From Candidatus Krumholzibacteriia bacterium (GTDB lineage: Bacteria; Krumholzibacteriota; Krumholzibacteriia; WVZY01): a stretch of 15,867 bases of DNA. The stretch is taken from the NCBI GenBank assembly GCA_036478295.1, contig JAZGDW010000192.1, positions 1-15,867 on the forward strand, written 5' to 3'. The first letter of the stretch is position 1. Every line of letters starts with the position of its first letter. A program made the position numbers and the translations under genes. Below the pieces are notes generated by a model. It worked only from the letters and a program-made list of their open reading frames with translations. It did no database searches and was not told the DNA's origin. Positions 8,516 through 10,318 of this stretch are shown here, piece by piece.

Positions 8516-9402
8516 GACTTCATGCCTGGTTATTCACATTCGCGTTTGGAATCGTGGTAACGGCGTGCGGCGATCTTCTCGTGGCGCAGACGGACTCAAC
8601 GGCGACCCGTGAGACGACGGCCGCTGCCGATAGCGCACCGGACACACTCGCGTCGCCGGTTCACACGACCGAGGCACAGGATAGTTTTCTGCCTGGATTC
8701 GTTCCGTTCGGCGAAGGCGAGAAGCTCGTGTTCGCGGTGCAGTACGGCATCATAACAGCGGGCGAAGCCACCCTGGAGATACGGAACATTTCTGACATAG
8801 ACGGCACCCCCTGCTACAATATTGTCTCCAACGCCCGCACCAATGACGTGTTTTCGGCGTTTTTCAAGGTTCGTGACCGTTTCGTGTCCCTGATGGATAC
8901 CACGGAGCTGGTGAGTCTTCGTTACGAGAAGCACCTGCGCGAGGGCAAGTTCAAGCGGGACGAGGTTGCGACGTTCGACCAGAAGGAGCACAAAGCGATT
9001 TATGATGAAAAGGTGGTAAGAATCGCGCCCCGGACACAGGACATCCTGTCGTCGATGTACTACGTTCGTACGCTGCCGCTCTCGGTCGGCAAAGTTATCT
9101 CACTGGCCACCCATTCCAACGGCAAGAACTACCCGCTAGCGGTCAAGGTTCTGCGGGAGGAAAAAGTGACGGTCGACGCGGGCACGTTCGACTGCCTCGT
9201 TGTCGAACCGTTCCTGGAGGGCGCAGGATTGTTCAATCAAAAGGGAAGGTTGACGGTGTGGGTGACCAATGATAAGTATAGGATTCCGGTGCTGATGAAG
9301 ACGCAGGTGTTCATCGGGGCGGTTTCCGCCGTTCTCAAGAGTTACCGGCTGGCGTACAAGTTGAACCATGACGAGCAAGTACGATCAAGCGGATCTGAAT
9401 AA
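8512..9402 (+). CDS. DUF3108-like exported protein, possible lipoprotein
   Basis: Start GTG 8512 (GTGA overlap). Hydrophobic N-terminus ending in VTAC, then a T/A/D/S-rich linker, then PFGEGEKLVFAVQYGIITAGEATL, FFKVRDRF, QDILSSMYYVR, EKVTVDAGTFDC and VWVTNDKYRIPV, the pattern I associate with DUF3108 (LolA-like fold clan). Confidence 0.75.
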   Translation: MRLHAWLFTFAFGIVVTACGDLLVAQTDSTATRETTAAADSAPDTLASPVHTTEAQDSFLPGFVPFGEGEKLVFAVQYGIITAGEATLEIRNISDIDGTPCYNIVSNARTNDVFSAFFKVRDRFVSLMDTTELVSLRYEKHLREGKFKRDEVATFDQKEHKAIYDEKVVRIAPRTQDILSSMYYVRTLPLSVGKVISLATHSNGKNYPLAVKVLREEKVTVDAGTFDCLVVEPFLEGAGLFNQKGRLTVWVTNDKYRIPVLMKTQVFIGAVSAVLKSYRLAYKLNHDEQVRSSGSE

Positions 9403-10318
9403 GATTCGACCGATTCCGATCGCAAGCCGCGAATCGAAGGTTCGCGTCGAGCACTTTGTCGATCCAGAAACGGTGGGAGCCGGAGTCACCGGCGCCGCAC
9501 TTGCCGGAATCTTCCCCGACATTCTGAAGGGCGATGACTTCAAACGGGTCGTTGCTGCGCTTCAGACGGCCCGCAGCAACAAGAAGCAGATCTTGTGGCT
9601 AATTGGATCGCACGTGATAAAATGCGGCCTGTCGCTCTATATCAATTCGCTGATCGATAAAGGATATGTTACCGCGCTGTCCACGACGGGGTCGGCGACG
9701 GTTCACGATCTCGAGCTGGCCTTTTACGGCAAGACATCGGAAGACGTGGCGGCCGAATTGCCGCGAGGTCGCTTTGGGATGTCCCAAGAAACGTCGGAGC
9801 GGTTTGTTGCGGCGTGCCGGCACGCCGCCGAGCGCGAGCTGGGACTCGGTGAAGGTGTCGGGGAATACGTGGTGCAGGAAGCAGCGCCGCACGAGCGGGT
9901 CAGCATTTTCGGCGCCGCGCATCGTCACAACGTACCGGCCACCGTCCACGTCGCGTTGGGCACGGACATTACCCATCAACATCCCGCGTTTCCGGCCGCC
10001 CTGGTCGGAGAATTGTCGATGCGGGATTTCCGCATTTTGACTTCAGTAATAGGCGATGTTTTCGAGGGCGGCGTCGTCGTCGTCTTCGGGGCCGCCGTGG
10101 TCCTCCCGGAAGTGTTCCTGAAATCGGTATCGATCGCCTACAACCTTGGCAAGAAGCCCGACGGCGTGACAGCGGCGAGCTTCGACATGTTTCAGCAGTA
10201 TCGGGTCAAGGAGAATGTGCTTTCCAGGCCGTTTCAAGGAAGCGGCAGGAACTATTCCTTCAGTGGCCATCATGAGATCATGCTGCCGCTCCTGTATCAT
10301 CTCCTGGACCGGGGTTAG
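9368..10318 (+). CDS. Conserved hypothetical protein with a deoxyhypusine-synthase-like (DHS/NAD-binding) fold; function unknown
   Basis: 316-aa ORF overlapping the upstream gene by 35 bp. Blocks [11 protein letters not shown]..L...G.[39 protein letters not shown] and [10 protein letters not shown] are colinear with DHS motifs (manual comparison). Confidence 0.7.
   Translation: [316 protein letters not shown]

Follow-up and report, generated by a model that had tools for sequence, protein, structure and literature searches.

The window, that is, the whole stretch of 15,867 nucleotides that was analysed, carries the following genes and features.

1..738, + strand: C-terminal ABC domain (PF00005), MsbA-like by context, truncated at the contig start.
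744..1805, + strand: GT9 heptosyltransferase II-like protein (TIGR02195, 159 bits, above cut-off).
1825..2856, + strand: HldE-type heptose-7-phosphate kinase half (TIGR02198, 294 bits, below the cut-off of 345).
2853..3359, + strand: HldE-type heptose-1-phosphate adenylyltransferase half (TIGR02199, 133.5 bits, below the cut-off of 181.5).
3356..4444, + strand: GT9 heptosyltransferase-like protein (PF01075).
4441..5511, + strand: GT9 heptosyltransferase-like protein (PF01075).
5508..7373, + strand: GT2-GT4 fused glycosyltransferase (PF00535 and PF00534).
7370..8515, + strand: GT4 glycosyltransferase (PF00534/PF13439).
8512..9402, + strand: DUF3108 protein, overlapping the next gene.
9368..10318, + strand: GSU2086-family protein of 316 residues with a DHS/OCD-type Rossmann fold, for which the function of a nickel-pincer-dependent heptose C6 epimerase is predicted.
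10432..11976, + strand: O-antigen-ligase-like membrane protein (PF04932, 31.8 bits, cut-off 31.7), the first ATG being taken as the likely start.
11864-13762, - strand: membrane-anchored sulfatase (side observation).
14393-15091 and 15128-15867, strand not given: bacterial sugar transferase and Wza-like export protein (side observation).

The open reading frame at 9368..10318 is a real gene. Its product matched the NCBIfam model NF052581, 'GSU2086 family protein', with 343.6 bits over residues 8-311 (cut-off 250), and the namesake lies in the order gmhA-GSU2086-hldE-gmhB in Geobacter sulfurreducens. A previous sequence-only reading, which had given this label and the heptose genes beside it in Geobacter, was correct on both points. 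A DUF3108 gene was found at 14 of 80 related loci from several phyla, usually directly upstream of the GSU2086-family gene. A scan for promoters and terminators gave results at chance level. The host genome (91% complete) contains a second pair of HldE halves (C63:1071-2546), a gmhA gene downstream of a nucleotidyltransferase-like gene (C249:107-649), larB-larC and larE above cut-off, and a LarA-like gene. Neither gmhB nor hldD was found in this assembly, the best score for hldD being 138.7 against a cut-off of 274.6. Two true DHS-like genes are present elsewhere in the genome (L002:575-2469 and L003), one of which bears the EAVSWGK motif and adjoins an agmatinase-like gene.

The GSU2086 family was detected in 147 of the 231 Thermodesulfobacteriota sampled and also in Acidobacteriota, Nitrospirota, Omnitrophota, Poribacteria, Ignavibacteriota and other phyla; the search for mobile relatives returned none in viral contigs or phages and two matches on plasmids. 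Nineteen longer homologues were scanned for fused domains, which were adenylyltransferase-like in seven, PfkB in two, SIS in one and HAD in one. Four fused homologues were checked further, and the partner domains proved to be HldE-, GmhA- and GmhB-like; one homologue, P0159, joins the GSU2086-family domain to both HldE halves. These fusions and the Geobacter operon support the role in the heptose pathway that had been proposed from the window. Against it, a heptose gene was present at only 30 of 80 loci of named genomes (21 kinase, 18 GT9, 12 adenylyltransferase, 10 gmhA and 3 gmhB genes), within the flanking DNA available. In the gene table of G. sulfurreducens, hldD is not among the 17 matches to 'heptos'. 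The step of the pathway left over is the C6 epimerase. A role as substitute for GmhA or GmhB is disfavoured, as both are encoded in the Geobacter GSU2086 operon and both occur fused to the GSU2086-family domain.

Divergent members occupy other settings. A Chloroflexota record (L014:5757-10459) combines sugar ABC transporter, Gfo/Idh/MocA, HAD, GSU2086-family, HldE-like kinase and GmhA-like genes, and is possibly a heptose catabolism cluster. No nucleotidyltransferase is annotated in it alongside the kinase, SIS and HAD genes, so that an ADP-sugar is not certain to be the substrate and a heptose phosphate is possible, at least there. A deep-branching subfamily (L013:5561-9543, L150) lies beside an inverted HldE-like fusion and a SIS gene; in L013, a plasmid cluster, the gene is next to a NeuB-type synthase. 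Genome G300 has two paralogues, one of this subfamily and one of the usual type. Separately, open reading frames of about 430 codons were seen directly after a waaA/kdtA-like Kdo-transferase gene (L126:1357-2655 and L127:1393-2673). They weakly resemble the DHS/cyclodeaminase fold, matched no NCBIfam model, and are possibly members of another unstudied family with the DHS fold that adjoins LPS genes.

The distribution of the family was compared with that of hldD, as had been proposed from the window, in two phyla. Among the 231 Thermodesulfobacteriota (retrieved at a completeness setting of 90, individual values not being displayed, with only 9 candidates per genome scored in one of the scans and a weak family match in G057 and a sub-cut-off hldD in G080 counted as negative), 136 had only the family, 41 only hldD, 11 both and 43 neither, for an expectation of 33 with both. 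Among 121 Omnitrophota, 3 had both, 26 only the family, 87 only hldD (the hldD count comprising 90 matches, 3 of them just below cut-off) and 5 neither, for an expectation of 21.6 with both; exactly one of the two genes was thus present in 113 genomes. Fisher p values for such profiles ignore kinship. Among 50 carriers from many phyla, taken from 80 carrier genomes for their long contigs, hldD was found in 2. The HldE kinase was present in 142 of the 147 Thermodesulfobacteriota carriers, and 37 of the 220 hldE-positive genomes of this phylum had neither the family nor hldD. On a FastTree phylogeny of the HldE kinase, the hldD-only state takes 10 changes, at least 4 of which are forced by strong branches. 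This tree, which is not a species tree, samples 80 of the 231: 50 family-only genomes, 6 with both genes and, of the 41 with hldD only, the 24 that had listed coordinates. A very long branch at its base holds two family-only rows that are maybe wrong-frame picks. The GSU2086 family and hldD are nearly mutually exclusive. The complementary distribution in two phyla and the fusions place the family, on genomic grounds, in the HldD slot of heptose pathways and support the earlier idea of an epimerase standing in for HldD.

The lar genes were profiled because TIGR00300 is named nickel-pincer-dependent and because passages of PMC13524815 cite a nickel-pincer adenine dinucleotide in ornithine cyclodeaminase of the AgrE/LOR-SDH type; the same paper poses the client of the lar genes in some genomes as an open question. 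In Thermodesulfobacteriota, larC was present in 146 of the 147 carriers versus 63 of the 84 other genomes (209 of 231 overall) and in 22 of the 41 hldD-only genomes. The 22 larC-negative genomes, two of which (G264 and G275) were deduced from their absence in the result list, comprised 19 with hldD and one with the GSU2086 family. Of the 29 Omnitrophota carriers, 24 had larB together with larE and 17 had larC; among the 92 non-carriers of this phylum the counts were 22 and 14, respectively. Eight of these 29 carriers keep larB, larE and His82 with no larC, and four more have half a larC. A conserved Omnitrophota locus (L099-L102, L116-L119, L162) consists of tsaD-, mgtC-, bactofilin- and HTH-like genes, named by eye, followed by larB; larC is full, halved or absent there, and larB and larE persist. 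This persistence hints at LarC-independent use of the cofactor. In carriers from other phyla, no larC match was found in 12 of 49 genomes (MAGs unfiltered for completeness), and larE above cut-off was absent from four of the five larC-less carriers tested, in which His82 is intact. Physical linkage to the lar genes was rejected as general evidence: no lar gene lay within 8 kb of the GSU2086-family gene at any of 80 loci, and where the distance was comparatively short, at about 7 kb in G082 and about 12 kb in G338, the lar genes are flanked by unrelated genes.

A published Tn-seq data set for G. sulfurreducens, of which the main and supplementary tables are used here (PMC5585712), bears on this relationship. 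Its Table 1 contains 39 genes with log2 values of -2 or lower on electrodes, among them hldE, GSU2086, gmhA, nikMN, GSU0140, GSU0141 and GSU0536, and leaves out gmhB, nikQ and nikO. The F/parent and electrode log2 values were 1.77 and -3.69 for gmhA, 1.50 and -3.19 for GSU2086, 1.01 and -3.07 for hldE, 1.53 and -1.73 for gmhB, 1.91 and -2.16 for GSU0140, 1.90 and -2.32 for GSU0141, 1.45 and -2.57 for GSU0536, and 1.61 and -2.02 for nikMN, with electrode values of -1.6 for nikQ and -1.7 for nikO (PMC5585712). In related genomes, the lar genes lie in the orders larB (249 aa)-larC (381 aa)-pgpA-cinA and dapF-Rrf2-(cysK)-larE-hsp20-polA. GSU0140-0143 and GSU0531-0541 of G. sulfurreducens follow the same orders with matching lengths, from which we infer that GSU0140, GSU0141 and GSU0536 are larB, larC and larE, respectively. 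By the order roo-larA-glcD and by length, GSU3295 would be the LarA homologue. This gene was neutral (F/parent -0.36, electrode -0.12), and LarA was accordingly rejected as the cause of the lar phenotype; electrode values were +0.51 for hypA, +0.60 for hypB and -0.9 for hypF (PMC5585712).

Polarity of the GSU2086 insertions on hldE and gmhB, and of the GSU0140 and GSU0141 insertions on the essential gene pgpA, is possible. The larE-position gene and nik are at separate loci, and the next genes, GSU0537 (-0.44 and -0.13) and GSU1282, respectively, are neutral (PMC5585712). The two-column signature is not unique: of 12 further genes from Table 1 that were checked, efp-2, ugd, cheA40H and GSU3321 (4 in all) showed it, and cbcL, pilQ, xapD and extA did not (PMC5585712). 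In Table S2 of the same study, GSU2048, GSU0013 and GSU2257 behave like the heptose and lar genes in both columns; the first of these, a hypothetical protein of about 135 aa, could have an accessory role. A cyclodeaminase-arginase locus exists in related genomes, but the gene table of G. sulfurreducens lists no 'arginase'; an unannotated cyclodeaminase in this species is possible.

In the numbering of the 9368..10318 protein, H113-D114, E116, E125, K252 and D273 are invariant, and H82 and K85 are conserved together with H113 and K252. Of 96 rows derived from loci, 91 retain His82, as do 255 of the 260 occupied rows of protein matches. The five locus rows devoid of it also carry Gln at residue 107, and in a quick tree they group together with an SH-aLRT support of 99, which points to a single event. 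Four of the five are the four Omnitrophota carriers without any lar gene (assemblies of 0.9-1.4 Mb). The fifth, L082, was tested afterwards and had no larB or larE above cut-off. Among the His82-bearing Omnitrophota used as controls, G403 and G404 had both larB and larE and G402 had fragments of both. A divergent extended-SDR-like open reading frame lies directly downstream of the gene in all five His82-less cases (L103, L104, L109, L110 and L082); the four that were scanned scored far below the HldD cut-off, and this SDR may be a partner or a replacement epimerase. In alignments, His82 falls opposite the Asn of the 'TSN' motif of DHS, which contacts NAD, and opposite no His in the cyclodeaminases. 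His82 is the candidate nickel ligand.

Together, the genomic, residue and Tn-seq patterns make it fairly probable that the GSU2086-family protein is a Lar-cofactor-dependent heptose C6 epimerase that replaces HldD, in a nickel form. Of the components of this proposal, the filling of the HldD slot is likely and the use of a Lar-derived cofactor highly likely. We infer the reaction, substrate, cofactor and ligand as follows. The enzyme would use, in place of NADP, the nickel-pincer product of LarB, LarE and LarC as its cofactor, held in the dinucleotide site of the Rossmann fold with His82 as the nickel ligand. A hydride would be taken from C6 of D-glycero-D-manno-heptose, possibly as heptose 1-phosphate but most likely as ADP-heptose, since fusions with adenylyltransferase domains are numerous. 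Return of the hydride to the opposite face of the ketone, as LarA does for lactate, would yield an L-glycero product that the GT9 transferases would then use. E248, H113 or H302 are candidates for the acid/base, and K252 or K85 for the anchor. The NAD-binding predicted by the sequence-only reading is probably wrong, the lar profiles, the Tn-seq co-phenotype and the His82 pattern all pointing to the nickel-pincer cofactor.

Several other explanations were weighed against the same observations. A Lar-made cofactor might serve a different hidden-redox step on a heptose or related sugar, at another carbon, in the D,D-heptose branch or in core modification, in which case the hldD pattern would reflect different core types. 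The genomes with both genes or neither, the divergent members in the NeuB/HldE/SIS plasmid cluster and in the Chloroflexota sugar-uptake cluster, and the paralogues of G300 fit this idea; it sits poorly with the near-perfect tiling with hldD in Omnitrophota and the repeated switches on the HldE-kinase tree, and we regard it as improbable. Somewhat less probable still is an HldD substitute with tightly bound NAD, as in the NAD-dependent DHS, the lar link being incidental to a shared anaerobic lifestyle and to polar insertions. The general frequency of larC in Thermodesulfobacteriota, the carriers without lar matches and the fact that the lar genes are never adjacent would agree with it. On the other hand, mutants of larE and nikMN/Q/O share the phenotype despite separate loci and neutral downstream genes, those of the LarA homologue, hypA and hypB do not, and the loss of His82 coincides with the loss of lar.

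LarC would be optional if an HldD substitute carried the hydride on a LarB/LarE product that contains no nickel, or inserted the nickel itself. The Omnitrophota lineages with larB and larE and an absent or halved larC suggested this scheme, which we nevertheless consider quite unlikely: those lineages keep His82, and the Geobacter phenotype extends to the larC-position gene and to the nickel transporter. Replacement of the phosphatase GmhB or the isomerase GmhA would agree with the failure to find gmhB in the host genome and with the fusion of both HldE halves in P0159. It is made very unlikely by the two genes in the Geobacter operon and by their fusions, by the gmhA of the host genome, and by the hldD and lar patterns, which a phosphatase leaves unexplained. 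That the protein is a true deoxyhypusine or homospermidine synthase is hardly credible; the fold is the same, but the scores are far below the DHS cut-offs, the C-terminal segment has no conserved Lys, and the host encodes a separate DHS with the EAVSWGK motif beside the agmatinase-like gene.

We also slightly favour a broader proposal, in which the family is an ancient, largely vertical nickel-pincer ADP-heptose 6-epimerase that renders the LPS core nickel-dependent across many understudied diderm phyla, is the main reason for the upkeep of larBCE there, and has given rise to two further forms, one independent of LarC and the other, in lar-free genomes, lacking His82 and paired with an SDR. 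If the nickel-pincer epimerase assignment is true, the missing HldD step would be filled in many diderm lineages and the lar genes would acquire a housekeeping job where their client is unknown. Nickel-pincer chemistry, so far seen with hydroxy acids, free sugars and ornithine, would come to include the synthesis of envelope sugars. The importance of nickel uptake, and of three genes unassigned at the time, for growth of Geobacter on electrodes in the 2017 data set would be explained as well.

The function of the GSU2086 family is probably specific and unpublished. No published function was found in the literature searched, GSU2086 appearing only as 'hypothetical' in the tables of the Tn-seq paper (PMC5585712). 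The searches, conducted at listing level for LPS structures, returned no L,D-heptose-containing LPS from a GSU2086-family carrier and no work joining nickel-pincer, heptose and epimerase, or LarB/LarC/LarE and heptose; Desguin 2025 or the NF052581 comment may already list the family. The heptose-operon context of the window gene matches that of the NF052581 namesake, and the name of this model carries no function. Its accession falls among nickel-pincer models (NF052512, NF052525, NF052526, NF052592-5), which suggests that the curators may already suspect such a link.

In comparisons with the PDB, phmmer gave nothing real for the 9368..10318 protein and a profile search gave true matches: the protein has the DHS/ornithine-cyclodeaminase fold. 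The DHS-like Rossmann fold claimed by the sequence-only reading was thus recovered, at 12-14% identity, and the non-DHS chemistry that it proposed is supported by scores far below the DHS cut-offs (PF01916, 18.5 versus 27; TIGR00321, 15.3 versus 304). The EAVSWGK motif with the catalytic Lys329 is missing, as that reading had stated. There is no GGGxxKH motif either, and no conserved Lys follows K252 in 96 rows. The closest characterised fold relative is the AgrE/LOR-SDH-type ornithine cyclodeaminase (TIGR00300; C-terminal domain of AgrE/ArgZ, 6lrf, 3c2q), which reportedly uses a nickel-pincer cofactor and has a homologous Rossmann domain. The 9368..10318 protein misses the cyclodeaminase cut-offs (TIGR00300, 18.5 versus 410.8; NF052526, 18.8 versus 440) and differs in its His/Lys pattern and in its sugar rather than amino-acid context; the comparisons reported no likeness to the N-terminal domains of OCD. 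LarA and NphT resemble the predicted chemistry in their nickel-pincer hydride transfer, LarA inverting a secondary alcohol and NphT acting on sugars, with a His ligand and a Lys anchor described in passages of PMC13524815; they differ in fold and in their substrates, which are 2-hydroxy acids or free sugars, and no LPS role is described for them in those passages. The model for HldD/RfaD, TIGR02197, gave no match to the 9368..10318 protein at E 0.1. HldD is an extended SDR with bound NADP that oxidises and then re-reduces its substrate. The GSU2086 family is predicted to perform the same step by the same logic, with an unrelated fold, a different predicted cofactor and a complementary distribution.
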